Origin: Candidatus Tayloriibacteriota bacterium
GTDB taxonomy: Bacteria > Patescibacteriota > Minisyncoccia > Phycocordibacterales > PALSA-1337
Direction: 5' to 3'
Assembly (NCBI GenBank): GCA_016215455.1
Contig: JACRJP010000002.1
Coordinates: 2,809-66,808 of the forward strand
DNA: 64,000 bases
Of the stretch, positions 10,848 to 56,675 are shown piece by piece (the first letter of the stretch is position 1; each line of letters begins with the position of its first letter). The notes below the pieces were generated by a model, which ran no database searches, had not been told where the DNA came from, and saw only the letters and a list, made by a program, of their open reading frames with translations. The translations under genes were made by a program, and so were the position numbers.

Positions 10848-11369
10848 TTATTTTGAGGTAACTGCGTACGTGTTTGCACCAATAGTAATAGTAGTTCCAC
10901 TTATCAAGCCGCCTGTACCATTGGTACCGAACCAACCACTACCTCCAGCTACTCCACCTACGCCCTTATAACTATCAGCCAGAACACCATTTGTATTCTC
11001 AAGTGTTGTAGCGAGAACAAAGTCAGAACCCGCAGCATTTACAATATAGATATATTTTGTCTCAGATGTTCCACTAGGCGGATTTGGAATTTGTGAAATA
11101 AATGTCCCTCGATTTATCCCTGTAGGACACCCTGTGTTTACAAGAACATCAGACCCTACGATAAATAGACTTGTCGGGTACTGTCCACACTTATCAAAAT
11201 AAAGCTGTGCAACAAGCTGAAGCTGGTTGAGATCAGAAATACGTTTTGCATCACGAGACTTTGATTTTGCGGTATTAAGATTAGCAAGAACAACCGCAGA
11301 AATAATGGCAATAATAGCAATGACTACAAGAAGCTCGATAAGTGTGAATGCTTTTTTAGACTGTATCAT
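10848..11369 (-). CDS. type IV pilin (major-pilin-like)
   Basis: Motif KKAFTLIELLVVIAIIAIISAVVLANL, then a variable Gly/Thr-rich C-terminal domain containing a Cys pair. Confidence 0.75.
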   Translation of the reverse strand: MIQSKKAFTLIELLVVIAIIAIISAVVLANLNTAKSKSRDAKRISDLNQLQLVAQLYFDKCGQYPTSLFIVGSDVLVNTGCPTGINRGTFISQIPNPPSGTSETKYIYIVNAAGSDFVLATTLENTNGVLADSYKGVGGVAGGSGWFGTNGTGGLISGTTITIGANTYAVTSK

Positions 11370-11407
11370 AATGATGGGTAATATTATACCTATAGTATAT
11401 CATAGCC

Positions 11408-12496
11408 ATGTGCTACGATAATGATACCTACAATCTCATGAAAAAGATTCCCCTAGAAATTCTAATCGTATTCCTCCCTTGTGTCATTTTTCTCATACTC
11501 TCTCTGCTCTTTTTCCCAAAATTTCTGATCCTTATAACCCTCAACATACTTGATTTGAGTGGTTTCCAACTCATTATCGAAGGAGGAATACTCAAGGTAC
11601 TTGGAATAAGCTTCCTTATACTATCTATAAGCAGTATCCTATCTTTAATTTTTCTAAAAAAACAGTACTCTCTCAAAGACCTTACAAAAAGTTTCTGTTA
11701 CTTTTTACTTCTTGTTGGTGTGCCCGGATTCTTTTATTCATCATTAGCGTTTTACTTATTTACACATGCTGATATTCCTAAAGTAATAGAATACAGCAAA
11801 CTTTTTTCTCATTATGACAAAGTCATGTTCGGTACTGATATTTTCTTTACAATGCGACCTCTAGAAAAAATTCCTTTATTTGAATTTTTTGTTCTCCATA
11901 GCTATAGCTTATTAGTTCCTATATGTTCAGTATGTGCTCTTGGTATGTATATCTTCAAACCTCTTATATTTAGAAGATTCATTGCAAGCTTCTTTCTTGC
12001 TATGGCACTCGGCATCCCTATGTGGCATTACTTTCCAGCGGTAGCGCCAGCATCATTGTATCTCACTAATATTTTTAGACTCCACCTTGAACCAGAAGAT
12101 CAACAAGCTATCAACAATGACCGTATATCACCTCTTTTGCGAGAAAAACTAACCGAACAAAATAATCTGTATTTTGATCCTACCCTACGAAATATTAATA
12201 CGAGTAGTAATCCATCCATGCACGCAGCGTGGGGATTTATCATATTCTTCTATCTCTATATGTACTCAAAAAGATTGGTATACATCGCTGGAATCTATAG
12301 TATCCTCAATGTACTCGGGGCTCTCTATGTCGGACAACACTTTGGAATCGATATACTCACAGGTATATGTATTGCTATATTGAGTATATATACAGTCGAA
12401 AAAATCTTTACCCGATATGGTAAAGATTTTTTGGAAACACCGTATTATACAGTTAGCTACGCGATCAGAGGGATTATATACAAACTCCGTTATTGA
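11408..12496 (+). CDS. PAP2 (phosphatidic acid phosphatase type 2)-like polytopic membrane protein
   Basis: 362 aa with about 9 TM helices. Contains PSMHAAWG (like PSGH) and YVGQHFGIDILTG (like SRxxxxxHxxxD). It is the only plus-strand gene inside the pilus cluster. Confidence 0.45.
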   Translation: MCYDNDTYNLMKKIPLEILIVFLPCVIFLILSLLFFPKFLILITLNILDLSGFQLIIEGGILKVLGISFLILSISSILSLIFLKKQYSLKDLTKSFCYFLLLVGVPGFFYSSLAFYLFTHADIPKVIEYSKLFSHYDKVMFGTDIFFTMRPLEKIPLFEFFVLHSYSLLVPICSVCALGMYIFKPLIFRRFIASFFLAMALGIPMWHYFPAVAPASLYLTNIFRLHLEPEDQQAINNDRISPLLREKLTEQNNLYFDPTLRNINTSSNPSMHAAWGFIIFFYLYMYSKRLVYIAGIYSILNVLGALYVGQHFGIDILTGICIAILSIYTVEKIFTRYGKDFLETPYYTVSYAIRGIIYKLRY

Positions 12497-12980
12497 TCTG
12501 TGATGTTGTAATTGACGCTGCTGATGTAATAGATGGCCAAACTTTATTATTCCCTGAACTATCAACACACACAGTTCCAGATCCATCAGGTAAAACAGCT
12601 GCAACTGCCCACTTTGTTGCAGGACTTGTTGCACTCGAAACATCAAATGAACATATATAGTCAGTCGCAGCAGATAAGTTGTTAGTCAAACCAGTTCTGA
12701 TTGGTGTAACTGAAGTTGCAGCAAATGCACCGTTTGCACAACCTGTAGTATCACCCTTGCCAATAGCATAGTTTGTTGTTGCACCATATCCAGTTCCATC
12801 TGAATTGATTTCAAGCTGACTTCGAAGACTATTGAGAGTAGCTTTCACTGACGTAGCCTTACTTCTACTTCGAGCTGTACCAAGTGAGGCGAGTACAACT
12901 GAAGACAAAATACCAATAATAGCGATGACCACGAGCAATTCAATCAATGTGAAACCTTTTGAAAAACGATTATATTCCAT
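12474..12980 (-). CDS. type IV pilin (tandem paralog A)
   Basis: Motif SKGFTLIELLVVIAIIGILSSVVLASLGTARS followed by a Gly/Ser/Thr-rich domain with two Cys pairs. Confidence 0.75.
   Translation of the reverse strand: MEYNRFSKGFTLIELLVVIAIIGILSSVVLASLGTARSRSKATSVKATLNSLRSQLEINSDGTGYGATTNYAIGKGDTTGCANGAFAATSVTPIRTGLTNNLSAATDYICSFDVSSATSPATKWAVAAVLPDGSGTVCVDSSGNNKVWPSITSAASITTSQINNGVCI
12869..12957. repeat. 89-bp perfect direct repeat, copy 1 (5' end of pilin paralog A)
   Basis: Identical nucleotide string TTCGAGCTGTACCAAGTGAGGCGAGTACAACTGAAGAC...AATGTGAAACCT occurs again at 13424-13512. Confidence 0.8.
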
Positions 12981-23185: not shown

Positions 23186-23274
23186 GGCGGAGAGAGCGAG
23201 ATTCGAACTCGCGGTTCCAATTAAGGAACGGCGGTTTAGTAAACCGCTGGTTTAAACCACTCACCCATCTCTCC
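23186..23274 (-). tRNA. class II (long variable arm) Ser-like tRNA; the anticodon reads ACT by my parse
   Basis: Acceptor GGAGAGA/TCTCTCC with discriminator G. Anticodon stem GCGGT/ACCGC with loop TTACTAA. Variable arm GTTCC-TTAATT-GGAAC. T-arm GCGAG TTCGAAT CTCGC. A partial CC 3' end is encoded. Confidence 0.6.
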
Positions 23275-25585: not shown

Positions 25586-25675
25586 TGGCGGAATCGGAGG
25601 GATTCGAACCCTCGAGACCTGTTAGGGCCTGCCTCTTTAGCAAAGAGGTATGTTAGACCACTCCACCACGATTCC
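25586..25675 (-). tRNA. tRNA-Ser (anticodon GCT), class II, CCA encoded
   Basis: Acceptor GGAATCG/CGATTCC with discriminator G. Anticodon stem CCTCT/AGAGG with loop TTGCTAA. Long variable arm. T-loop TTCGAAT. 3' CCA present. Confidence 0.85.
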
Positions 25676-29445: not shown

Positions 29446-29449
29446 ATTG

Positions 29450-29523
29450 TGCGCCTGCTTGGATTCGAACCAAGGACCCCAAAGGTATAAGCTTTGTGCT
29501 CTAACCAACTGAGCTACAGGCGC
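29450..29523 (-). tRNA. tRNA-Ile (anticodon TAT, reads AUA)
   Basis: Cloverleaf GCGCCTG..CAGGCGC+A. Anticodon stem CAAAG/CTTTG with loop CTTATAC. T-loop TTCGAAT. Confidence 0.8.
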
Positions 29524-44995: not shown

Positions 44996-47902
44996 TTAGA
45001 TTGGGAGATTTACAGGAGGTTGTTGTGTAGGTTTCGATACCGGAACATCAGAGGTTCGTGATACTGGTGGGGTATCCACAACGAAGCGTGGAGTCGTATT
45101 AAGTGGGGTGCGAGGTACTGTCGGAGTCGCAGATGGTAGTTTTGGACGTTCATACTTCTTCATGACCTCACTTTCAACAATACTTCGTTCACGACCATAC
45201 TTCAAATATGAGAGTTCCTTAAGATTTGGAACAATTCCCTTGTCACCCGCTACTGGAGCGATAGTTTCAATATCAAAGGGTTTAATTGGTTGACCATTTG
45301 AGAGGATCTTGAGATACGCATGACGGTTCTCAATATTCATGAGGTCTTTTGCAGTAAAGACTGGTGAGAACTGCTTTTCAAGATATTCAGCATCGTCAGC
45401 ACCTACACGAAATACTGCCATTGAACCGACGTTACCGAACACTGAATCACGAATACCCTCTTCAAGTTGGGCGATAAACTGATGCGCGATATTAAGTGAC
45501 AACTTATACTTTCGAGCTTCAGACAAAATGGTTGAAATAGAATTTGTTGTAACATTCTGGAATTCATCGATATACAAATAGAATGATGGCAAATTCTGAC
45601 CGAGTGAATCAACACGTGAAAGTGCTGCCATAAGAATTTTACCCACAAGAATGAGACCAATGAGATTAGCATTGATATCTCCAAGACGTCCCTTTGAAAG
45701 ATTAACCAAAAGAATCTTCTTTGAGTCCATGATCTCACGGAAATTAAACGTCGATTTCTCTTGAGCAACAATCGGACGCATAATATCATTCGACAAAAAC
45801 ACATCGAATTTACTTGTGATATACGGCACAATATTTGAAAGAGATGCTTCCCCTCCCGCCTTCTCAGCGACATCTCTCCAGAACTGAACAACAATTGGAT
45901 TCTTACATCGTGAAAGTTTAAGTTCACGATATTGTTTCTGAGCAAGAACGCGTGATACATCAAGGAGTGTATTTCCTGATTCAGGATCTTCCATGACAAG
46001 AAGTACTGCGTTACGGAAATACTGCTCAAACATTGGACCTCCTGCCGTCTTCATATCAAACAACTTATTAAATATCGACAACATCTCATTCACCACGAAT
46101 GTTTTTTGTTCAGGATATCGAGCATCAAACTCAAGCATGTTGAGTCCCATCGGGCGATCGGTGTATCCAGGATCAAAATAAATAACGTCTTCATATCGAT
46201 GTCGTGGAATCGCAGCTAGAATATCCTGGATGTCAGAGCCGTGAGGGTCAATCATACACACACCGTCTCCCCTCTCAATATCCTGAATGATCATGTTCTT
46301 GAGAAGTGTTGTCTTACCGGTACCTGTCTGACCAATAGCGTAGAAGTGGCGTAGACGATCTTCATCAGTAAGGAATATTTTTGTTGTGATATTTCGATGG
46401 TGATTAAGACCGAGCACAGTACCTTGCTGTGGCAAATCGATTGGTGCAGGAGCACCACCAGCCTTTGATATTTTGAGTTGAGGAGCTGTTCGTATAACCG
46501 TTGATGGAAAATGGACCATACTTGTAAGTTCTCGGAAACTTAGAGGAATCTTCTGATCCTCATCAAAAAGACGGAAAGTAAAATCATGAATACCGTGTGC
46601 TAGACCATTACCAATCAAACGATTAAATCGAATTCGATTTCCGGTTGGATTATCAAATTGATTAAATGCAGATTCAATCTCCCCCAACACATTACTTGCA
46701 GTCATTTCATCTTTAGCTGATGCGACAATACGAATATTCGCCAAGACAATTGGACTTGAAATTTTATTCTTAATATTCTCAACTGCAATCGCATCAACAG
46801 GAACAGTTTCTTCCTCCTTCTTTTCAGAAAAAGTTTTTACAATATCCTTACCAAATGCCCATATATGTTCAAACTTAGACTCAGGTATATCAATCGCTTC
46901 TTTAACCTTTGTTCCTTTATTAATCTTATCAATTGCCTTCTTGTACGCTCCTGTGTACTTATCACCACAAGGATTAAATATCATCTGAAGAGCTGCCCCC
47001 TGACCATCCTTAGCTATCTTTGAAAATGAATTGAGAATAACATTGAGTGGATCATGATCAAATTGTTCATATGTCTTGAGAGAAAATATCGGCTTACGAC
47101 CTGACATAGCATACGACATTTTGGTAACACCCTTTTCAGAAAAGATATTATAATCATCTTTTTTCTCAACTATCTTTGCATTATGGAAGATAGAGAGAAT
47201 CTGTTTTTCAAGAAGATTCCTTTTTGTATCATGGACAGCGACATAGAAAACAAACTCATCGCTATGATTCGCTACTGCAATTTCAAAAGCAAAAAAATTG
47301 GTACCATCCTGATTATCATCATTAACCGACAACATACCTGCATAGAATTGTTCCATTGATGAGACAAGTTCTTTGAGATTCTTTTGCTCAGCATCCTTGC
47401 CCGCTTCAGGAAGTGTCACTTCATAGAGAGTTACTTTCAATGCACGATACAAAGAGTCGCTTTCTTTAAGACCTGGAATAGGAAAACCTGCCTTAATATA
47501 CTGCACAAGAAAACGTTCGAAGTCATCCTCAATATGTGGATCCTTCAGATTTTTTACAATTGTAAGAGCGTTTTTAAAACCTTTTTCTCGAAAGATTCCA
47601 ACAAGTTCAGCCATCGTATCATCATGCGTCTCGGGAGTAAGTTCAAGAACAATAGCCTCGGTTTCGCGTGCTGAAGCAGCATACTCCGGATGCAACACTT
47701 CCCCTGGATGAACTTGACCGTACTCTTTAATAACCTCACGTGCAATATGAGACTGTTCAGAAGAAGAGATGTTGGCAAGTTTACCTTCAACTTTACGCGA
47801 TGCTAGTTCACGTTCTTTTTCAGCAACTTGAGCACGTAGATATGCAAGCTCCTGTTCAGGATTACGAAGACCCGCTTGAATATCAAGAGAAAACTTTTCC
47901 AT
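44996..47902 (-). CDS. large soluble P-loop ATPase of the FtsK/HerA/T4CP (TraG-VirD4)/VirB4-like class, with a ~480-aa N-terminal domain and a Pro-rich tail
   Basis: 968 aa. Walker A HFYAIGQTGTGKTT. About 260 aa downstream is a Walker B-like motif YLYIDEFQN, followed by AHQ. No TM helix. The C-terminal ~60 aa are Pro/Thr-rich. Confidence 0.6.
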   Translation of the reverse strand: MEKFSLDIQAGLRNPEQELAYLRAQVAEKERELASRKVEGKLANISSSEQSHIAREVIKEYGQVHPGEVLHPEYAASARETEAIVLELTPETHDDTMAELVGIFREKGFKNALTIVKNLKDPHIEDDFERFLVQYIKAGFPIPGLKESDSLYRALKVTLYEVTLPEAGKDAEQKNLKELVSSMEQFYAGMLSVNDDNQDGTNFFAFEIAVANHSDEFVFYVAVHDTKRNLLEKQILSIFHNAKIVEKKDDYNIFSEKGVTKMSYAMSGRKPIFSLKTYEQFDHDPLNVILNSFSKIAKDGQGAALQMIFNPCGDKYTGAYKKAIDKINKGTKVKEAIDIPESKFEHIWAFGKDIVKTFSEKKEEETVPVDAIAVENIKNKISSPIVLANIRIVASAKDEMTASNVLGEIESAFNQFDNPTGNRIRFNRLIGNGLAHGIHDFTFRLFDEDQKIPLSFRELTSMVHFPSTVIRTAPQLKISKAGGAPAPIDLPQQGTVLGLNHHRNITTKIFLTDEDRLRHFYAIGQTGTGKTTLLKNMIIQDIERGDGVCMIDPHGSDIQDILAAIPRHRYEDVIYFDPGYTDRPMGLNMLEFDARYPEQKTFVVNEMLSIFNKLFDMKTAGGPMFEQYFRNAVLLVMEDPESGNTLLDVSRVLAQKQYRELKLSRCKNPIVVQFWRDVAEKAGGEASLSNIVPYITSKFDVFLSNDIMRPIVAQEKSTFNFREIMDSKKILLVNLSKGRLGDINANLIGLILVGKILMAALSRVDSLGQNLPSFYLYIDEFQNVTTNSISTILSEARKYKLSLNIAHQFIAQLEEGIRDSVFGNVGSMAVFRVGADDAEYLEKQFSPVFTAKDLMNIENRHAYLKILSNGQPIKPFDIETIAPVAGDKGIVPNLKELSYLKYGRERSIVESEVMKKYERPKLPSATPTVPRTPLNTTPRFVVDTPPVSRTSDVPVSKPTQQPPVNLPI

Positions 47903-47983: not shown

Positions 47984-48271
47984 TTATTTTGCAAGCTTCC
48001 CTCGCACACCCATGAGATTGATCTTATCATCAGCTTCGGTACTTGCTTTTTTAAGTTCCCGAAGTCCCTCTACTACATTCTCAAGCACAGCCTTATATCT
48101 TCGGTTAATTGCGTTATCGAGCTTAAGCTTTGCAACAGCAAGTTGTGTATACACTGCCCCTTGTTCTGCTTCAGATAAGTCTGCCGCAAACATTTCAGCA
48201 ATCATTGCTTTTGCTTCATCAATTTTCTTTGCCTCGAGAAGAGCTTCGAATTTTTCAGTATTAAATGTCAT
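47984..48271 (-). CDS. small alpha-helical protein (95 aa) in the ATPase operon
   Basis: Charged, helical and probably coiled-coil. Positioned between the 424-aa and 968-aa genes. Confidence 0.4.
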   Translation of the reverse strand: MTFNTEKFEALLEAKKIDEAKAMIAEMFAADLSEAEQGAVYTQLAVAKLKLDNAINRRYKAVLENVVEGLRELKKASTEADDKINLMGVRGKLAK

Positions 48272-48276
48272 GGTGA

Positions 48277-49551
48277 TTATTTAGTTATTTTAGAAAGCTT
48301 TCGACGAGCAGCGGCGATAAGAATCTTTTTTGTATTCGTCTCTGGAGAGTCAGGCATTGTCGCTTGTATTTCATCAAGAGTTGCCAGAACAAACCACTTC
48401 ACATTCCCTCCCTTAGTTGCACCAAGTTTTTCTCGGTTGATAAGCTCACTAAGACCAGCAACCATTTCATCAAGCGGCTTACTTCCTACGGTTGTAGTAT
48501 CGATCACGGCCTCGAGTTGATTAGTCACCGCAACCTCTACCATAGCACTGATCTTATCGGCAAAAGCCTTTTGATCGGCTCCGATATCTGACTTTGTATC
48601 CTCCTCAAACTGTTCAAGCTTTTCTAAAAAATTACTTGCTTCATCAACTGCAGGAAGATCGTACCCCTTAGCAAGCGCCTCCATCTTTTTTGTAACGGCA
48701 GCAAGAGCAACATTTTTGATCGCCTCCTCTGACATTAATGTACCAAGAAGTTTTTCATTAACTTTTTTCAATGAAGTATCCTTATCAGCTTTTAGAGAGT
48801 TAAGTTCATCAACACTTGCAAGTTTTTCTTGAATTTTTGCAATAGAAGCTTCGATATTTTTAATTTCATCTTTAATACCGAAAGAAGGTACGATCGGAGC
48901 TTTATCAAAAAAACCTACATCATACCCATACTGAGCCTTAAGAGCAGCTCGAGAATCTTTGTATTCTTTAAATGCTTGTTTTCCTGCACGAAAAGCTCCA
49001 ATGATATCACCTCCCCCGATCCAAAATGAAGAAAGCGGAGCTTTGATAATATTCATACTCGAAGCTTTTTCAAAAGTATCTTTTTTCTGCTCGAGTTGAC
49101 CTATAGTTGCCATGTGCTGCTCAATACCACCAAGATCTTTCACTTGTTGTTCTAGTCCAGCAATATCAGCGGATAAAGTTTCCGCTTCTTCAAAAGTTTT
49201 AATGATATCAAAAACATAATCAGGATTTTCTACCAACTGATCAGTTACATGCTCACGAATACCATTTATTGCTTTTTCAGGAATTTTTACACCCAACCGT
49301 TCACTAAACTCAGTGGTAATAAAACCATTCAACTTATCAATTGCTATAGTACCTTTATCAAACAATTCTTTTTTCTCAAGAATTTTCTCTGGATTTTTAT
49401 CAACATCTTTTACAAGATTTGCTTCAGCAGGATACTTACCAAGAAAAGCAACGAACTGAGGATCATTCAGGGCTTCAAATAATTTTTCTTCATTACTTGC
49501 TTTCTCTGCAGCAATAGCCTCTGGATCTCCGGTTGGTACTTTTGGTGTCAT
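48277..49551 (-). CDS. acidic coiled-coil protein (424 aa), first gene of the ATPase operon
   Basis: Long heptad-like stretches (LEQQVKDLGGIEQHMATIGQLEQKKD...). No enzymatic motif. Confidence 0.45.
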   Translation of the reverse strand: MTPKVPTGDPEAIAAEKASNEEKLFEALNDPQFVAFLGKYPAEANLVKDVDKNPEKILEKKELFDKGTIAIDKLNGFITTEFSERLGVKIPEKAINGIREHVTDQLVENPDYVFDIIKTFEEAETLSADIAGLEQQVKDLGGIEQHMATIGQLEQKKDTFEKASSMNIIKAPLSSFWIGGGDIIGAFRAGKQAFKEYKDSRAALKAQYGYDVGFFDKAPIVPSFGIKDEIKNIEASIAKIQEKLASVDELNSLKADKDTSLKKVNEKLLGTLMSEEAIKNVALAAVTKKMEALAKGYDLPAVDEASNFLEKLEQFEEDTKSDIGADQKAFADKISAMVEVAVTNQLEAVIDTTTVGSKPLDEMVAGLSELINREKLGATKGGNVKWFVLATLDEIQATMPDSPETNTKKILIAAARRKLSKITK

Positions 49552-49590: not shown

Positions 49591-50355
49591 CTATACAGTC
49601 AATATCTCAGCATCACCCTTTGTAATCAGGATAGTATGTTCAAAATGAGCACTTGGCTTACCATCTTTTGTCTTATAGGTATAACCATCCTTATCAAGAA
49701 ATACCTTATGAGTCCCTAAATTGAGCATAGGTTCAATAGCAAGCACCATACCAGGAACAAGCTTAGGACCTGTCTTTGGTTCACCATAGTTAGGTACATA
49801 TGGATCTTCGTGTACTTTATACCCCACACCATGACCCACAAGCTCTTCAATAAGGCCGTAACCATATGGCAATGCTGTTCGTTCAATAGCGGAACCAATA
49901 TCCCCTACAGTCTTTCCTGCTTTTGCTGCTTTGATACCAGCCATGAGTGCTGCTTTAGTAACACTGAGTAATCGTTCAACATCAGTACTAATTTTTCCAA
50001 CGGGAACGGTAACAGCAGCATCTGTAAAAAGACCTCCGTGAATAAGTCCGAGATCAATACTTACAATATCCCCCTCTTTCAAAATATGCTCTGTTCCTGG
50101 AAGACCGTGAACTACTTCGTCATTAATCGAAGTACAGATACTCGCAGGATATGGATAGGCTGCACCCTCTGGTTGATAGCCGAGAAATGATGAGGTATCG
50201 CCTCCTTCTTTGATGAGAGTAAACGCAAGATCATCAAGTTCTTTTGTTGAAACGCCCGGTGCTACTTTTGCAGTAATAGCCTTAAGAATTTCGGCATGAC
50301 GTTTACCACCCTCTCGTAGAATTCGTATATCGTCTTTTGTCTTAATAGTAATCAT
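49591..50355 (-). CDS. map: methionine aminopeptidase, type I
   Basis: 254 aa with the conserved metal-ligand D, D, H, E, E pattern and the MetAP-I consensus. Confidence 0.9.
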   Translation of the reverse strand: MITIKTKDDIRILREGGKRHAEILKAITAKVAPGVSTKELDDLAFTLIKEGGDTSSFLGYQPEGAAYPYPASICTSINDEVVHGLPGTEHILKEGDIVSIDLGLIHGGLFTDAAVTVPVGKISTDVERLLSVTKAALMAGIKAAKAGKTVGDIGSAIERTALPYGYGLIEELVGHGVGYKVHEDPYVPNYGEPKTGPKLVPGMVLAIEPMLNLGTHKVFLDKDGYTYKTKDGKPSAHFEHTILITKGDAEILTV

Positions 50356-50948
50356 GAGAATTTTGCGATATGTTCCACAATATCAGCATGCACTACATCA
50401 ATAGGTCGATCACCATTAATTTCTATAAAATTATAATGTGGATTATTACGATAATACTCAATAGTAGGAATCACATTAGAATCAAACCATGTCAGACGTT
50501 CTTCAATTTCCTCTTTATGATCATCACCACGACCTCGAGCAAGAAGTCGCTCGACTGAAGTGCTTTTTGGTACATTAATATACACAACAAAAGGTTTTGA
50601 AAGATTATAGAAACCAAATAGTGAATGAAGAACACCCGCTTCGTGCACTTTGCGTGGTGTACCATCAATAATGAGATGTTCTCCACCAGTATATGATTGA
50701 ATCATTCGATTTGCCCACATATAGATCATCAAAAATTCTGGTTCGAGATCCCCTCGATCATATATTTCTTTAGCAAAGCGTTGTGTCACACCATCATGGG
50801 CAATAAACTCACGAAGTTCACTTCCACTCTGTAAGTAAAGAACTCTCTTTTCGTTAGAATTTTTCTTGAGATACTCGGAAAGAAGCGTACCCTGCGTACC
50901 CTTCCCACACCCTGAACGACCCATAAGAATAATAGCTGTTTGATGCAT
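50352..50948 (-). CDS. adk: adenylate kinase
   Basis: P-loop GRSGCGKGTQG and LID/NMP-binding motifs. It overlaps the map start by 4 nt. Confidence 0.85.
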   Translation of the reverse strand: MHQTAIILMGRSGCGKGTQGTLLSEYLKKNSNEKRVLYLQSGSELREFIAHDGVTQRFAKEIYDRGDLEPEFLMIYMWANRMIQSYTGGEHLIIDGTPRKVHEAGVLHSLFGFYNLSKPFVVYINVPKSTSVERLLARGRGDDHKEEIEERLTWFDSNVIPTIEYYRNNPHYNFIEINGDRPIDVVHADIVEHIAKFS

Positions 50949-51182
50949 ACACCCTAGTATAGCCTAAATATATCAAAAAAGTAAGAAAATAGGCCTAAAA
51001 ATAGCCTCTTATATGAGTTTTCCACAGTATCCACATTGAGTGGATAAGTCTTTACTTGACGAGGGTAAGTATGGTATAATACGCCTAGACACGCAGAACT
51101 TCGAAAGTTCACCCGATTCGCACCTGTAGTGCGTCTTGACTGTGTCTTGTCTCAACCTCAACATAACGAAAGGACCGAAGCC

Positions 51183-52154
51183 ATGAAACGCTTCCTTCTC
51201 ATCGTGAGCCTCGCGCTCACACTCGGTATCGCTGGGGTTGCACAAACCCCTTCTAGCAACTCGGTCTCTCTCGCAACTCAGCTCCCTCTCGGGACCGCTG
51301 AGCGGCTTGAGGAGAATGCGCGTTCGCGCATTACTTACCTGACCGTATTCCTCTGGTTCACTGACTCGACCAAACTGATCAAGGAGTTCACTCCTGTGAG
51401 GTTTGATTCGACCAGTGAAGACCTCGAGACCTTTGTTCCTCGAGTCCTTGGAGAAAAGCTTGCGCTTCTCAACAGTCTCGCTATCACCAATACGGGGCGG
51501 CCTATACAGCTCGCCTACAAGTTTGTTGATAGTCGACTCATCATGCTGTTTTTTGGCACAGCTGAATTCACGTTGGAAAACCGCAACGGACAGTGCTCTG
51601 CACCGCTCGATGTGGAATACAACTGGCAGCTGCGCCCAGGATACGCTACTGGGTTTGGGATGCATGTCCCTGGGATTGTGAAGGCACATCTTGTTGCCCA
51701 AGACGGGACAAACACACTCTTTGACAAGGAGATCGATCGGAACACCAACGACAATGGGTTCGGAATCATGTCGACCATCGACTATCTCTTTCTCCCTCCT
51801 GAAGCCATCACCAATGGCTACAACGGAGAGTTGACGATATGGGTCAAGGACGGCAGTGACCCAAGTGGTCTCAGAATGGCGACCTACGACCTCCAAACAG
51901 GGGTTCGAACGTCTCCCATTCATCTGACCATGACCGCCTACTATCAAGGGGTCACGATCAAGATCACTGGGTCTCCAGGAAAGTCGGTAGCGCTTTGCCG
52001 CTCTACCACTCTTGGGGAGACACCTACAGTCTTTCAAACATTCATCTTGGACAGTGGTGGTGCCACCACTGTCCACATCAGCACAGAGGACACTGACTCT
52101 GTCACCGGATTCTTCAGCGCAAAGTATGTCGCAAGCGACAGTGCTAAGCGTTGA
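51183..52154 (+). CDS. hypothetical secreted protein in a GC-rich islet between adk and secY
   Basis: AAAGGA Shine-Dalgarno sequence before the ATG. Signal peptide MKRFLLIVSLALTLGIAGVAQ. Followed by a strong terminator. The antisense 355-aa ORF is treated as a shadow. Confidence 0.5.
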   Translation: MKRFLLIVSLALTLGIAGVAQTPSSNSVSLATQLPLGTAERLEENARSRITYLTVFLWFTDSTKLIKEFTPVRFDSTSEDLETFVPRVLGEKLALLNSLAITNTGRPIQLAYKFVDSRLIMLFFGTAEFTLENRNGQCSAPLDVEYNWQLRPGYATGFGMHVPGIVKAHLVAQDGTNTLFDKEIDRNTNDNGFGIMSTIDYLFLPPEAITNGYNGELTIWVKDGSDPSGLRMATYDLQTGVRTSPIHLTMTAYYQGVTIKITGSPGKSVALCRSTTLGETPTVFQTFILDSGGATTVHISTEDTDSVTGFFSAKYVASDSAKR

Positions 52155-52195
52155 ATCAGGGGGAAGCTATCGGAGCTGACCCTTTTTATTTTAAA

Positions 52196-52227
52196 CAAAA
52201 AAACAGACCTCTGGTCTGTTTTTTTAA
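52196..52227. terminator. bidirectional rho-independent terminator
   Basis: A8 run, stem ACAGACC/GGTCTGT with loop TCT, then T8 run. Confidence 0.65.
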
Positions 52228-52244
52228 CTCTATGTATTAATAGA

Positions 52245-54290
52245 TTAGAATTCTTCGATTGCCGGATCAACAGCTGTCACATCAATCGTCCTCCACACGT
52301 TACCACCCGCCCCAGCAGAATACTGGCATCGCATTTCATATCGAACCTGTCGAGCAGATTGTGTAATAGGTGTCTCTGCAGAATATACTGAGAAATCTTT
52401 ACTACTGTTATCCTGCCAAGCTGAATTTGATGTACTATTCCACACATTACATCCAAGGTTAAAACTACCAGACGAAGATGTCATCTCACCGAACAACTTA
52501 AATGGCTTATTCTTCTTCACTCTAAGAGTTCCTGTTGTTCCATTGAGTGAGTATTCAGACTTACCCTTAAGAACAAAGTTTGGAGTTGCAGAAGGACTTG
52601 TAACAGATATCGAACCACAAGCAAGTGATGAAGACTCTCCAGGTGTAGCTGATGTATCTCGTGCTTTAACCTGGAATGAGTGTGTTACTGGAGTCGAGTT
52701 AGTGTAGGTAAATATCTTTGATGGTGAAGACGTGTATGCACTCCATACCCCACTTTCATCTGTCCATGAATATTGATATGTACCATTACCTCCACTTGCT
52801 CCTGAAGCAGTTACCGTAACATCATACGGTGAACTCGATGTTGTACGTGTTGTTGGACTTACTGAACAAGAACCAACTGTTACAGATCTTAATCCTGTAC
52901 ATGGATTTTGCGGACCAGTGACGATAAACTCATTCGAAGAGAAAGAAGGATACTCAACATTTGAAATCACTGGAACAATCTTATATGTATATGGTGTACC
53001 AACAACAAGTGATGATGTATCGGTGTATGTCAGACCAGAAACACTCGCTAATGCTGTTGTTGGATATGTAGCGTCTGTTCCAAGCTTTCTATACACCTTA
53101 TATGTCGCAGTTCCTGAGTATGCATCCGTCCATGTTAATGTCACTGACGGCACAGCAGGACTCACACATTGATTTCCTCCAAGAGTTGAACCATTCAATT
53201 CAGGACCCTTAGATACTGTTACGTTAAATGTTGTTGTTTTAGTAATTGCAGGTGTACCGCCAGAAGTAGACGATGTACTTGAGCATGTAAAGCCTGTACT
53301 TGCATTTATCTCATTTCCCGTCAACGTCCAGTTATTAGTACCACACATAGCATTTGCTCGAGATCGTCGCCATTCTACAACAGTTCGTGATCCTGCGGAT
53401 GGATTGAGGTATGCATTTGAACCAACAACCTTACAATCCCCTTCATCGAAGTTAATACACTTTGTTGATTGAAAACCACCGGCTTCATAATCAGTTTTTG
53501 GATTAAACCCTGATTCGCTACTACAACCAAAGTAGAAACCGTCGTACTGATGATTTCCAGGATTACCATCAGAACCTGTCTGCCACACAATCGAACAAGG
53601 AGTAGTCGCTCCAGCGGTAACTGTAGTACCACTTGTAGCTGGCACAGTACCTGTAACAGTGACAGTGTACGTACCAAGTAGTGTATCTGACGAAGTGAGA
53701 AGCTTAAGATGCGAATTACTTGCTGGATTTGCCGGCAAGACTGGATTCGTACTGAAAGGTGCGACCAGAGGATCGATTTGTAATCCTGTTGTTGTATTCA
53801 AACGATTAGCACCTGATGTATCACCTACGAGCACAGCAGAGGTAACTGCTAGTGTAACGTTTTTTGATAGTGTTGAATCGGCGGATAGTAAGGTATTGAT
53901 CACTTCATCAATAGCATTCCCTGCTGTAACACTCTTATTTCCATCATTAGTTAAAGAGAAATCAAACACCGGTGTGGTAGTAACAACCTCAGACGTTGAA
54001 AAAGTAACAGACTGACAATAGAGACTGCCGACAGTACTGTAACTTCCTCCCATGTTGTATAAAGTAAAACCAACCATGACTGACCCAGAAGGACACGAAG
54101 AGTTTTGCTGGTATGTAGTGTTCGTTGTTCCTCCCCACGCACTTTCAACAACGGGCTTATTTTCATAACTCGTAACAGGACCTAGGATAAATGTCTGGCT
54201 CTGAGCTAAAACATGAGGTATCTGCGAACCACCCAACACACAAAGTGCCAAAGCTATAACAACCGACGAAAATATTTTTTTTAGTTTCAT
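52245..54290 (-). CDS. large secreted Ser/Thr-rich beta protein with an N-terminal ~60-aa Cys-pair domain
   Basis: Signal peptide. Domain ...VVESAWGGTTNTTYQQNSSCPSGSVMVGFTLYNMGGSYSTVGSLYC..., then about 550 aa that are Thr/Ser/Gly-rich. Confidence 0.5.
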   Translation of the reverse strand: MKLKKIFSSVVIALALCVLGGSQIPHVLAQSQTFILGPVTSYENKPVVESAWGGTTNTTYQQNSSCPSGSVMVGFTLYNMGGSYSTVGSLYCQSVTFSTSEVVTTTPVFDFSLTNDGNKSVTAGNAIDEVINTLLSADSTLSKNVTLAVTSAVLVGDTSGANRLNTTTGLQIDPLVAPFSTNPVLPANPASNSHLKLLTSSDTLLGTYTVTVTGTVPATSGTTVTAGATTPCSIVWQTGSDGNPGNHQYDGFYFGCSSESGFNPKTDYEAGGFQSTKCINFDEGDCKVVGSNAYLNPSAGSRTVVEWRRSRANAMCGTNNWTLTGNEINASTGFTCSSTSSTSGGTPAITKTTTFNVTVSKGPELNGSTLGGNQCVSPAVPSVTLTWTDAYSGTATYKVYRKLGTDATYPTTALASVSGLTYTDTSSLVVGTPYTYKIVPVISNVEYPSFSSNEFIVTGPQNPCTGLRSVTVGSCSVSPTTRTTSSSPYDVTVTASGASGGNGTYQYSWTDESGVWSAYTSSPSKIFTYTNSTPVTHSFQVKARDTSATPGESSSLACGSISVTSPSATPNFVLKGKSEYSLNGTTGTLRVKKNKPFKLFGEMTSSSGSFNLGCNVWNSTSNSAWQDNSSKDFSVYSAETPITQSARQVRYEMRCQYSAGAGGNVWRTIDVTAVDPAIEEF

Positions 54291-54313
54291 AATAGTAATA
54301 TGTTATAGACGTA

Positions 54314-54952
54314 TTAAGGCTCTTGTGTATTTCTAAGTCGAGTTCTGTATCCATCGACATATCCAGAATCAGTCGAATTATCAATATAATCACCTGTTGT
54401 AGTTGTCTGGGGACTATCACCAACAGTACCCGTTGTACTACCTGTACCTGTAGCAGGAATTACATCTTTTGCTGACAATACTTCACGACAATACAACATT
54501 CCAGCTGTACTATAGTTGTCACCCATATTGATAAGATTAAAACCAACTAATACTGAACCATCAGAACATCTAGCATTTTGAATCTGCTCATCTGTCGTTG
54601 CAGGGCCACCCCATGGGTTTTCAATAACAAATTTCTGTTGAGCGACAATTGGTCCAAAATTTAATGCAACAGTCTTACAATACAAACTACCAACAACACT
54701 ATAATTTGAACCGACGTTAAGGAGGTTAAAGCCGACCAAGACTGATCCGTCAGGACAAGAAGACGCAGCTATCTGGGTTGTATTACCAGCAGCTCCCCAT
54801 GGACTTTCAATGACATTTTTATCATATCGAACAAGAGGACCAAAGTTCGTAGAACTTGTCTGAGCAATTGCATATGACGCACCAGTATAACTGGCAATAA
54901 AAACCCCTACCAATATCACTGCTTTGAAAATTTTTGTTGTATCGTGGCTCAT
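54314..54952 (-). CDS. secreted protein with two tandem copies of the same Cys-pair domain
   Basis: Signal peptide. ...ESPWGAAGNTTQIAASSCPDGSVLVGFNLLNVGSNYSVVGSLYC... and ...ENPWGGPATTDEQIQNARCSDGSVLVGFNLINMGDNYSTAGMLYC... Confidence 0.5.
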   Translation of the reverse strand: MSHDTTKIFKAVILVGVFIASYTGASYAIAQTSSTNFGPLVRYDKNVIESPWGAAGNTTQIAASSCPDGSVLVGFNLLNVGSNYSVVGSLYCKTVALNFGPIVAQQKFVIENPWGGPATTDEQIQNARCSDGSVLVGFNLINMGDNYSTAGMLYCREVLSAKDVIPATGTGSTTGTVGDSPQTTTTGDYIDNSTDSGYVDGYRTRLRNTQEP

Positions 54953-54971
54953 ATTTTTCTTGAATTAGTGA

Positions 54972-55331
54972 TTAATGTGTATTTAGAGCAGTGATAATCA
55001 AATGCTTCTCTGTATCATTGAGTACCCTAGAGAGGCTTGCATATGCATCCAATATAGCTCGACGTTCACTTGGATAGAGAGGTTGTTGACCAACAGTAGC
55101 TACACGCGCAAGTATAGCCGCCTTTGTATCAGCAGTCTTTTGTTGTGGAGTAATAGTTAACCACTTGAGATCAGGCCGTGGTGTTGCTGGTGGATAACTG
55201 ACTACCGGTCCAGTATCAAAACTATTTTCATCAGTTGAAAAATTCCAATAAGAGTACCCTGCCCCTATCAAACACGCTACGAGTAATATAACGAGTATAA
55301 CCAACCTATGGTGTAGTGAATGATCTTGCAT
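54972..55331 (-). CDS. hypothetical signal-anchored protein
   Basis: 119 aa with an N-terminal TM helix. Confidence 0.4.
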   Translation of the reverse strand: MQDHSLHHRLVILVILLVACLIGAGYSYWNFSTDENSFDTGPVVSYPPATPRPDLKWLTITPQQKTADTKAAILARVATVGQQPLYPSERRAILDAYASLSRVLNDTEKHLIITALNTH

Positions 55332-55403
55332 AAGAACATTGTAACAAAAATCCCCATTGACTGGGGATTTTTGTTTGTGGATAACAAGAGAAACGATGTG
55401 TTT

Positions 55404-56675
55404 CTAATATTCTCGCATTGACGCCTGAGCATCGATTCGCTTGATGAGATCAAGTACTACTGACACCACAATGAGAAGTGCTGTACCGCCAATATTGAGT
55501 GCAGTGTTACCTGTCACTCCCTGCATGATAACAGGAAGAATCGCAATAATACCGAGGAATAATGCACCAACAAGAGTGATTCTTGTTACGATCTTTCCAA
55601 GATATTCTGATGTAGCTTCACCTGGACGTACTCCTGGAATGAATGCACCTCCCTTCTGTAGGTTTGTTGAAATCTGTACTGGATCAAATGTTACTGCAGT
55701 ATAGAAGTAAGTAAACACAAACACAAAGAAGAAGTACACAATTCCATGGAACCACTGATTGTTTAAGAATACCGTTACCTGACTTGCGATATCAGCAATT
55801 TGAGTATTTGATGATTGAGCAAGGAAGTTGGTAATGATCTGTGGCAAAAGGAGGATTGAGAGTGCGAAGATAATCGGAATAACTCCTGATTGATTCAATC
55901 GAAGAGGAATGTATGTTGATACACCTCCGTACACTTTATTTCCTCGAACTTGCTTTGCATACGTAACAGGAATTGGTCGTTCAGCTTCAGTTACAATTAC
56001 CACTGCTGCGATAATCGCAACAGCTGCTACAAGGAAACCGAGGTACAAAGGAATTTGTCCTGGATCAAATGTACTCACGAACTGTGCAATGTGTGTTGGA
56101 AGTACCGCTACGATACCAGCAAAGATGATGAGTGAAACTCCGTTTCCGATGCCGAATTCAGAGATAAGTTCACCGATCCACATAAGGAGCACAGAACCTG
56201 CTGTAACAACGAATACGTTGACAAAGAATTCAAGACCGGTAAATGCTGGAATGATATTCTGATTTTGCAAAAGTGTAAGGAACCCAAATGCCTGAAGAAA
56301 AGCGAGGGGTACACTCAAGTATCGAGAGTATTGAGAGAACTTGAGACGTCCTGCCTCCCCTTCTTCTTGGTACATTGCCTTAAGCTTTGGTGACATCATC
56401 GTAAAGAGCTGCATGATAATCGATGCAGTAATGTACGGACTCACACCGAGCATAACGATTGAAAGTCGTGATATACCTCCTCCTGAGAAGATATCAAGAA
56501 GTCCAAGAAACTGGTTACCATCAAGCAATTGTCCAAGTCGTAATGCATCAATACTTGGAATTGGAATCGCTGACAGAAGTCGGAAACCGATAAGTGCAGC
56601 AACAGTGAAAATGATACGAAGTCGCATTGATCGATCATTGAGCACCACTCCAAGTTTTTGGAAAAAGTTTTTCAT
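55404..56675 (-). CDS. secY: preprotein translocase subunit SecY
   Basis: 423 aa with 10 TM helices. Matches the SecY consensus. Confidence 0.9.
   Translation of the reverse strand: MKNFFQKLGVVLNDRSMRLRIIFTVAALIGFRLLSAIPIPSIDALRLGQLLDGNQFLGLLDIFSGGGISRLSIVMLGVSPYITASIIMQLFTMMSPKLKAMYQEEGEAGRLKFSQYSRYLSVPLAFLQAFGFLTLLQNQNIIPAFTGLEFFVNVFVVTAGSVLLMWIGELISEFGIGNGVSLIIFAGIVAVLPTHIAQFVSTFDPGQIPLYLGFLVAAVAIIAAVVIVTEAERPIPVTYAKQVRGNKVYGGVSTYIPLRLNQSGVIPIIFALSILLLPQIITNFLAQSSNTQIADIASQVTVFLNNQWFHGIVYFFFVFVFTYFYTAVTFDPVQISTNLQKGGAFIPGVRPGEATSEYLGKIVTRITLVGALFLGIIAILPVIMQGVTGNTALNIGGTALLIVVSVVLDLIKRIDAQASMREY

Follow-up and report, generated by a model that had tools for sequence, protein, structure and literature searches.

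Concatenated ribosomal operons have been described as disconnecting by a process that begins with 'a small number of genes' invading a junction, and adk, map and infA have been inferred to be ancestral in the spc operon region (Brandis 2021, Genome Biol Evol; PMC8046335). The bacteria studied there were Gammaproteobacteria and Bacilli, and the junctions lay between operons. The locus considered here comes from a 64-kb stretch of DNA (hereafter the window, meaning the whole stretch that was analysed) whose locus tags HZA80_00360 and HZA80_00365 belong to a Candidatus Taylorbacteria metagenome-assembled genome. Its secY and adk genes are separated by three genes on the secY strand (p119, p212 and p681) and by a guanine-plus-cytosine (GC)-rich gene on the opposite strand (pGC323), a break that matches the published pattern. 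Unlike the published cases, however, this break lies inside the Patescibacteria secY-adk-map run, and the cargo supplies its own terminators. The operon break itself is ordinary, since the invasion of a ribosomal operon cluster by accessory genes is a known evolutionary pattern.

With moderate confidence, we read the four inserted genes as a self-contained, terminator-insulated accessory cassette of extracellular binding proteins that has been placed between secY and adk. Summary accounts describe Patescibacteria as mostly episymbionts that exploit their hosts, a lifestyle shown by cultivated members, and in those accounts the mechanisms of host recognition and attachment are largely obscure. 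A rare, conserved cassette of secreted proteins that is clearly under selection, with a predicted head lacking a close solved neighbor and a hypervariable partner gene, is a concrete candidate for such a role.

The initial annotation of the window had described an insertion that breaks a conserved secY-adk-map linkage, and a comparison of gene order bears this out. Among 80 Paceibacteria loci collected via SecY (62-75% identity), 74 carry adk on the same contig, and in 48 of these the gap between secY and adk is below 400 bp. The closest relatives follow the same arrangement, with gaps of 23-387 bp in eight of the nearest nine (L001-L004 and L006-L009); the contig of the remaining one, L005, ends before adk, so it was left unscored. 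In the window, adk does not follow secY directly but after 4455 bp. None of the relatives holds the cassette at this position: hidden Markov models (HMMs) of the Cys-pair module, the small membrane protein and the convergent gene family, all described below, found no credible match in any of the 80 secY loci. Adjacency of secY and adk is the prevailing state and probably the ancestral one. Because it prevails among relatives, the 4.4-kb block in the window is derived, a lineage-specific insertion in one Taylorbacteria (Patescibacteria) lineage.

The junction had also been taken to mark a hypervariable locus, and the same comparison agrees: in 26 of the 74 relatives (35%) it holds 0.55-7.7 kb of other, unrelated cargo. 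The secY-adk junction is a recurrent insertion site. Cargo examples, with open reading frames (ORFs) judged by eye, include a second kinase-like gene on the opposite strand, toxin-antitoxin-like pairs, a reverse-transcriptase-like gene, an ABC-transporter-like set, and several families of ORFs rich in GC at third codon positions (GC3). The reverse-transcriptase-like ORF, at 11282-12331 on the minus strand of L036, has an N-terminus resembling a reverse transcriptase of retron, group II intron or diversity-generating retroelement type, and adjoins a four-helix-bundle-like ORF at 12330-12683 on the plus strand (both judged by eye).

The genes p119, p212, p681 and pGC323 are one conserved unit found at differing chromosomal positions, and so far only in Patescibacteria (Table 1). 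A small transmembrane protein followed by one or more module proteins, on one strand and with short spacers, is the gene order in the window, in L082 and L083, and in L086-L089. The window shows all of the traits by which the cassette was recognized, namely this order, three modules per system, and an adjacent secreted GC3-rich gene of ~300 amino acids (aa). Its spacers are 72 nt between secY and p119, then 19 and 23 nt between p119 and p212 and between p212 and p681. A metagenome scan contributed only three more loci.

The left side of the block was recovered a second time. An independent assembly (L085, from Logan run SRR21713533) equals window positions 52336-56418 at 98.4% identity without gaps, and since it reproduces the run secY-p119-p212-p681, the left junction is genuine. 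Between the window and L085, synonymous changes exceed nonsynonymous ones (11:1 in secY, 6:1 in p212 and 28:12 in p681), which indicates that p212 and p681 are under purifying selection. The GC3 of p119, p212 and p681 (0.24-0.27) is host-like, resembling that of adk and map, and their composition is therefore native. The positions that the initial annotation gave for all ORFs, the bidirectional terminator and the GC-rich opposite-strand gene were reproduced from the ORF list and the sequence.

The three genes on the secY strand had been described as encoding three signal-peptide proteins, a description that holds for two of them. Both p212 (..ASYAIA followed by QTSS) and p681 (..PHVLA followed by QSQ) have an n-region, an h-region and an AxA site, as read from the sequence. 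The third, p119, has one N-terminal hydrophobic helix and no AxA site, which fits a signal-anchor (bitopic membrane) protein better, one with an N-terminal transmembrane helix, an extracytoplasmic domain of ~80 aa and the terminus ..ALNT(H/R/Q). Homologues of p119 (112-124 aa) lie immediately 5' of the module proteins in L082, L083, L086, L087, L088 and L089, and the L088 homologue is 31% identical to p119 (E 8e-15; HMM E 1e-16).

A repeated Cys-pair module of ~60 residues, noted earlier as two copies in p212 and one at the N-terminus of p681, was recovered by HMM at E 1e-27 to 1e-33 (Table 1), and the iterated HMM found it nowhere else in the 64-kb window. It is rare, with 25 representatives at E <= 0.001 in an exhaustive HMMER search of 1.84 billion proteins. 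The proposal that it is not a described domain also stands: Pfam, NCBIfam, PHROGs and PADLOC were empty, and PDB sequence searches with the module gave nothing below E 0.4. At the level of whole proteins, Pfam returned no match to p119, p212, p681 or pGC323 even at E 10, and NCBIfam, PHROG and PADLOC models matched no cassette protein (PADLOC at E <= 0.1). With no PADLOC match, an anti-phage defense system was rejected.

In some relatives p212 and p681 are fused into one chain. Residues 1-162 of p212 are 55% identical to residues 1-162 of protein P0010, signal peptide included, while residues 30-586 of p681 are colinear with P0010 residues 168-730 (28% identity, E 3e-36). P0010 is, judging from these alignments, a Rosetta-stone fusion of p212 and p681. 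By itself p212 shares 45% identity with P0003/P0004. A word-indexed homologue search with p681 matched only p681; direct comparison with the 694-aa L082 protein is colinear, with 30% identity across 667 columns. Following its module, p681 has Ig/CARDB-like, Cys-rich, FN3-like and PKD-like regions and ends in ..AIEEF. In relatives of p681, Pfam detects CARDB (E 3.8e-5) and fn3 (E 5e-7), and Laminin_G_3 occurs in family members.

Module counts were taken only where both partner genes could be read, which was the case in the window and in L081, L082, L083, L087 and L090. The arrangement is 2+1 in all of these except L081, where it is 3+0, and P0010-P0014 carry three modules in a single chain. Where a protein has one or two modules but its partner is not visible (P0006-P0008, P0015, P0016, P0018 and P0020-P0026), no count was scored. 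The head offers a clean case in which some genomes encode one domain in two genes and others in a single fused gene. Among the unscored proteins, P0020-P0026 are short; each starts with an 'AWTAP..PP.NN..AP(I/L)N' motif in its N-terminal part and has one module, which in most lies at the C-terminus. The same motif occurs in a protein encoded just 3' of the cassette in L089 (3508-3843). If such short single-module proteins trimerize, three of their modules could form the three-module head.

The C-termini of the large proteins have features of their own. In P0010, P0011, P0014, P0017 (which is p681) and P0019, a two-Cys beta domain is followed by a short acidic motif (..AIEEF, ..TIIEQ, ..FITEE or ..SIEER), and the big cassette proteins have neither a transmembrane segment nor LPXTG at this end. 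The acidic motif may be an unrecognized sorting or docking signal.

Structure prediction is consistent with a head built from three modules. For the three-module segment of P0010, AlphaFold2 gave a predicted local distance difference test (pLDDT) value of 87.2 and a predicted TM-score (pTM) of 0.87, from an alignment of 19 rows in which one row was an artificial p212+p681 concatenate and permuted rows were not used, avoiding a bias toward a closed arrangement. Such a pTM would be expected of one compact domain. Each predicted module consists of a long strand, a short helix and two more strands. For p212 alone, with eight sequences, the pLDDT was 39. We infer that p212 and p681 associate, with 2+1 modules, into the same head that their relatives form in a single chain. 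Foldseek found no match to the head in the PDB below E 0.18, and against a viral model library the matches (E 7e-5 and 5e-4) were to unnamed proteins with TM-scores of 0.38-0.42. The description that suits the predicted head best is a beta-rich, disulfide-bearing domain of three modules to which no solved structure is close.

Some known domains nevertheless resemble it in outline. Like the VOMI family (Pfam PF03762), the head has three tandem units of ~55-60 residues, each with a CPxGxxxxGF...C Cys pair. P0012 (residues 63-189 against VOMI 16-143) is a colinear match at E 0.033 and P0030 a match at E 7e-4, and the relatives score 14.7 and 20.2 bits, below the gathering threshold of 25 bits; neither p212 nor p681 matches VOMI at E <= 10. 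A VOMI-type beta-prism was rejected, Pfam support being sub-threshold and found in two relatives only, with no match to the solved VOMI structure. The PCSK9 C-terminal Cys/His-rich domain, the resistin head and the APCbeta domain of apicomplexan perforin-like proteins are also among the closest known systems. The APCbeta similarity (Foldseek E 0.26; hmmsearch E 0.4, with a CPxGxVxxG motif) is below accepted significance.

The initial annotation had further proposed that read-through from secY would couple these surface proteins to growth-rate control, and here the analysis points the other way. A perfect 14-bp intrinsic terminator, missed in the initial annotation, lies between secY and p119 (-20.3 kcal/mol, z -4.6), and p681 and pGC323 converge on a bidirectional one (z -4.8 and -5.1 on its two strands); in neither case did any of 200 shuffles equal the hairpin. 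Both have a GC-containing stem and a U-run and are more stable than shuffled sequence, although a simple terminator scanner overlooked them, their stems being A/T-extended. The secY-p119 spacer is also identical in L085 (0 of 72 bases differ), compared with 1.2-2.3% substitutions in secY and p681. Elsewhere, reading by eye and without folding, the convergent genes of L082, L083, L086 and L087 have a GC-stem hairpin between them, and those of L081 a weaker stem rich in A/T. Since nusA and the cassette diverge in L082 and L083, the cassette must have its own promoter there. Because a strong terminator hairpin stands directly after secY, the arrangement argues for a cassette walled off from the ribosomal operon, and so for an accessory-gene insertion and not a new regulatory coupling.

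Promoter-like elements were found on both sides of the block. The element TGTTACAAT just upstream of p119 is compatible with an extended -10 promoter of the cassette's own and a leaderless p119 start, a possible reading; a two-hexamer promoter scan, which does not detect TGTTACAAT, found none between secY and p119. The site 5' of pGC323 was the best promoter match in an 8-kb scan (10/12), and TTGACT...TATAAT or TGnTA elements likewise precede the convergent genes in L081, L083, L086 and L087. Cassette transcription would, on our reading, start from its own promoters and not from those of the spc operon.

Alternatively, the genes may have been recruited into the spc operon as first proposed, with secY read-through tying surface-protein expression to ribosome and growth-rate control. 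The three genes do lie on the secY strand, beginning just 72 nt after secY, with no two-hexamer promoter detected in between, and intrinsic terminators are rarely 100% efficient. We nevertheless consider recruitment improbable: a GC-cored hairpin with its U-tract sits inside this very spacer and is perfectly kept between strains, the cassette is self-standing in other genomes, among them those that carry it divergent from nusA, and it is separated from adk by a convergent gene as well as a bidirectional terminator. A more certain consequence, overlooked in the initial annotation, is that adk-map have been cut off from the spc operon promoter, since two terminators and a convergent gene now intervene; by inference, adk-map therefore need a promoter of their own. 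An insulated insert is in this respect more informative on where adk-map obtain their promoter than on growth-rate control of surface proteins.

The fourth gene, pGC323, stands out by composition. Its GC content is 0.53 against 0.41 for the window, with the excess located in third codon positions (GC3 0.60 against 0.24-0.27 in neighboring genes). Its product has a signal peptide (..IAGVA followed by QTPS, with n-region, h-region and AxA site read from the sequence). A word-indexed search of 5.8 billion proteins matched only pGC323 itself, and profile methods connect it to the convergent genes of other cassettes: among 346 window ORFs it is the best match to the convergent-gene HMM (E 1e-3), its C-terminal 70 residues match the family by hhalign (P 0.0014), including the ..FF(R/S)xK ending, and its N-terminal half is 24% identical over 147 residues to the L088 convergent protein by BLASTP (E 7.5e-4). 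Seven other loci have a secreted GC3-rich gene of ~300 aa directly 3' of the big gene; in six of the seven it is convergent and has a terminator hairpin in common with the big gene, and in L092 it is on the same strand.

The initial annotation implied that the GC-rich gene is a separate foreign add-on, a reading that gives way once the other loci are considered. In six of seven loci the fourth gene has a GC3 of 0.40-0.60, and the adjoining small, module and big genes one of 0.19-0.27; the exception is L081, with little contrast (0.53 against 0.34-0.53). Because this enrichment recurs across cassette loci, the GC excess of pGC323 is a property of the gene family, and a recent foreign origin is unlikely. 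The fourth gene also diverges faster than its neighbors, with 47% amino-acid identity between L083 and L087, where the small, module and big genes are 80-91% identical. Neither foreign origin nor amino-acid composition explains this conserved, gene-specific GC3 enrichment; our best guess as to its cause is frequent recombination with GC-biased conversion.

Other readings of the GC-rich gene were tried and rejected. A 355-aa ORF antisense to pGC323 (51009-52076) merely follows from the high GC3, as the antisense frame is closed at most other loci; it also loses to the signal peptide, promoter, terminator and family similarity of the plus strand. For a structured RNA as the cause of the GC-rich island, Rfam in E-value mode gave no credible match across 49-57 kb. 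For a diversity-generating retroelement behind the hypervariability, no second copy of any part of 51001-52230 and no YxDD ORF above 250 aa were found in the window.

Further observations concern the same gene and others with its composition. The 3' coding part of pGC323 contains a perfect 13+13-nt palindrome at 52048-52075 (TGGACAGTGGTGG cc CCACCACTGTCCA). The convergent gene of L082 (10817-11644, minus strand) encodes 275 aa and, unlike its counterparts in L083 and L087, no signal peptide; coding sequence may extend 5' of the ATG, and the gene could have a mis-called start or be a pseudogene. The secY-adk gaps of relatives often contain ORFs on the secY strand with strongly raised GC3 (0.44-0.62 against a locus GC of 0.36-0.44), and these fall into three mutually unrelated families, each present across several species (23-48% amino-acid identity; Table 1). 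A GC3 enrichment confined to particular accessory genes may be general in this clade.

Regarding function, the reading that needs the fewest assumptions is a device for extracellular binding or attachment, and we give it close to an even chance. It is suggested because the proteins carry signal peptides and an Ig/CARDB/FN3/PKD-like array, because the small membrane protein always comes first, and because pilus genes lie nearby in one genome (L088) and cultivated Patescibacteria lead an episymbiotic life. In such a device, p212 and p681 would join, their 2+1 modules building a compact three-module domain, and the assembly could let an episymbiotic cell attach or recognize its host. The protein p119 might act as an anchor or assembly factor, and pGC323 as a variable partner. 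A more specific version, which we offer as speculation, is an undescribed host-recognition machine of Patescibacteria, with a new three-module, disulfide-stapled head that is made of two polypeptides (2+1) in some lineages, this one included, and is always accompanied by a hypervariable, GC3-enriched partner that sets or masks specificity. If so, the GC3 enrichment would reflect frequent allelic exchange (GC-biased gene conversion) under diversifying selection.

The main functional rival is a secreted attack or toxin-type factor directed at the host cell, in which the head would be a membrane- or glycan-binding domain that delivers an effector. The best, though weak, neighbors found for the head are domains with which toxins and related proteins bind, such as APCbeta, and a host-exploiting way of life, as summary accounts describe it for most Patescibacteria, would suit such a factor. 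However, all toxin-type matches fall short of accepted significance, none of the cassette proteins has a detectable pore-forming, enzymatic or toxin domain, and a long Ig/FN3-like array is more typical of surface fibers. We regard an attack factor as unlikely.

Far less probable is a remnant of a phage or other mobile element, with tail-fiber or receptor-binding genes integrated at the junction. The cassette is patchily distributed at differing loci, the junction is an insertion hot spot at which relatives hold toxin-antitoxin-like and reverse-transcriptase-like ORFs, and the head has the Foldseek matches to viral models noted above. Against this, the PHROG search was empty and 2.9 million viral contigs held no relative, results on which a viral origin was rejected, and three of the four genes have a host-like codon composition. 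An integrative element or prophage was likewise rejected, as no integrase or transposase ORF was found in 50.9-55.4 kb, no flanking repeats at the block boundaries, and no PHROG match. An assembly chimera, with a false join in the metagenome-assembled genome that brought in the entire block or its GC-rich 1.2-kb part, is barely credible: GC does step from 0.40 to 0.52 across 51.0-52.2 kb and pGC323 is present in a single record, but secY-p119-p212-p681 was recovered in a second, independent assembly, a GC3-rich gene of ~300 aa directly 3' of the big gene is the rule in assemblies from other projects (convergent at six loci), and p681 and pGC323 use one terminator stem.

Several points weigh against reading the block as an inserted, insulated cassette of binding proteins. 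Transcription may leak through terminators, and the promoter elements are consensus matches only, of a kind no commoner than in shuffled sequence. The membership of pGC323 in the convergent family rests on weak scores and position, and its junction with adk, on the right side, is supported by one contig only. There is no scar, in the form of repeats or an integrase, to show the route by which the block arrived. Function, finally, is read from architecture alone, with no Pfam, NCBIfam, PHROG or PADLOC family match.

Table 1. Features of the window, cassettes at other loci, and GC3-rich gap ORFs of relatives (window positions unless a locus is named)
Feature	Position	Strand	Description
secY	55404-56675	-	Pfam SecY, E 9.6e-101; last conserved spc-type operon gene before the insertion
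Intrinsic terminator	55343-55375	-	14-bp perfect stem, 5-nt loop, U-tract; 28 nt after the secY stop
Candidate extended -10-like element	55338-55346	-	TGTTACAAT; ends 6 nt before the p119 ATG, no Shine-Dalgarno
p119	54972-55331	-	From ORF list; cassette gene 1
p212	54314-54952	-	From ORF list; two Cys-pair modules, then a low-complexity tail
p212, module 1	54668-54847	-	Residues 36-95; jackhmmer domain E 2.8e-31
p212, module 2	54473-54661	-	Residues 98-160; jackhmmer domain E 1.5e-33
p681	52245-54290	-	From ORF list; one Cys-pair module and a stalk; P0017
p681, module	54006-54185	-	Residues 36-95; jackhmmer E 2.2e-27; aligns to P0010 module 3
Bidirectional intrinsic terminator, p681/pGC323	52197-52225	both	13-bp perfect stem, A-run and T-run flanks
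pGC323 (GC-rich gene)	51183-52154	+	ATG start; a GTG upstream at 51129 is likewise open
Promoter-like site	51051-51080	+	TTTACT-18-TATAAT with TG extension; ~100 nt 5' of pGC323
adk	50352-50948	-	Pfam ADK, E 3e-21
map	49591-50355	-	Pfam Peptidase_M24, E 5e-45
Cassettes L082, L083, L087			112-aa transmembrane protein, 220-aa two-module protein, ~690-aa one-module protein, convergent 275-369-aa gene; divergent from nusA
Cassette L086			120 aa, 1476-aa fusion, convergent 313-aa gene; neither secY nor ribosomal-operon genes near
Cassette L088			124 aa, 761 aa, convergent 330-aa gene; adjoins type IV pilus genes
Cassettes L081, L089, L090, L092			Variant cassettes; various neighborhoods
GC3-rich gap family	L014 2519-3514; L015 11616-12611; L026 2249-3193
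GC3-rich gap family	L021 11499-12185; L031 11515-12111; L035 11717-12055; L040 11419-12042
GC3-rich gap family	L027 11565-12011; L041 10280-10729

Elsewhere in the window, two hypothetical genes (p95 and p424, 47984-49551) lie between map and the gene for a 968-aa protein (p968, 44996-47902). A p968 homologue follows map after ~30-480 bp in L002, L024, L028 and L050, and in L028 a weak p424 homologue is instead found downstream of the p968 homologue, which suggests that the map-p968 interval is a second local rearrangement beside the one studied here. At 23186-23274 and 29449-29523 ARAGORN listed a tRNA-Ser (anticodon ACT) and a tRNA-Ile (anticodon TAT), and it placed a further tRNA-Ser(GCT) at 25586-25675. 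The anticodons ACT (Ser) and TAT (Ile) are unusual for bacteria.

Among described surface-protein systems, the cassette most resembles the large, adhesin-like proteins with Ig, FN3 and CARDB repeats of Patescibacteria and other bacteria, sharing with them a signal peptide, long beta-sandwich arrays and, among family members, the CARDB, fn3 and Laminin_G_3 matches; one cassette locus (L088) adjoins type IV pilus genes. It differs from them in its C-termini (..IEEF, ..IIEQ, ..ITEE), which take the place of LPXTG, S-layer-homology or any known anchoring signal. It differs, too, in the small membrane protein dedicated to it, in its hypervariable partner gene, and in a specific tripartite Cys-pair head that two genes sometimes encode between them. 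Among the surface-protein systems of bacteria, the cassette is a variant not described before.

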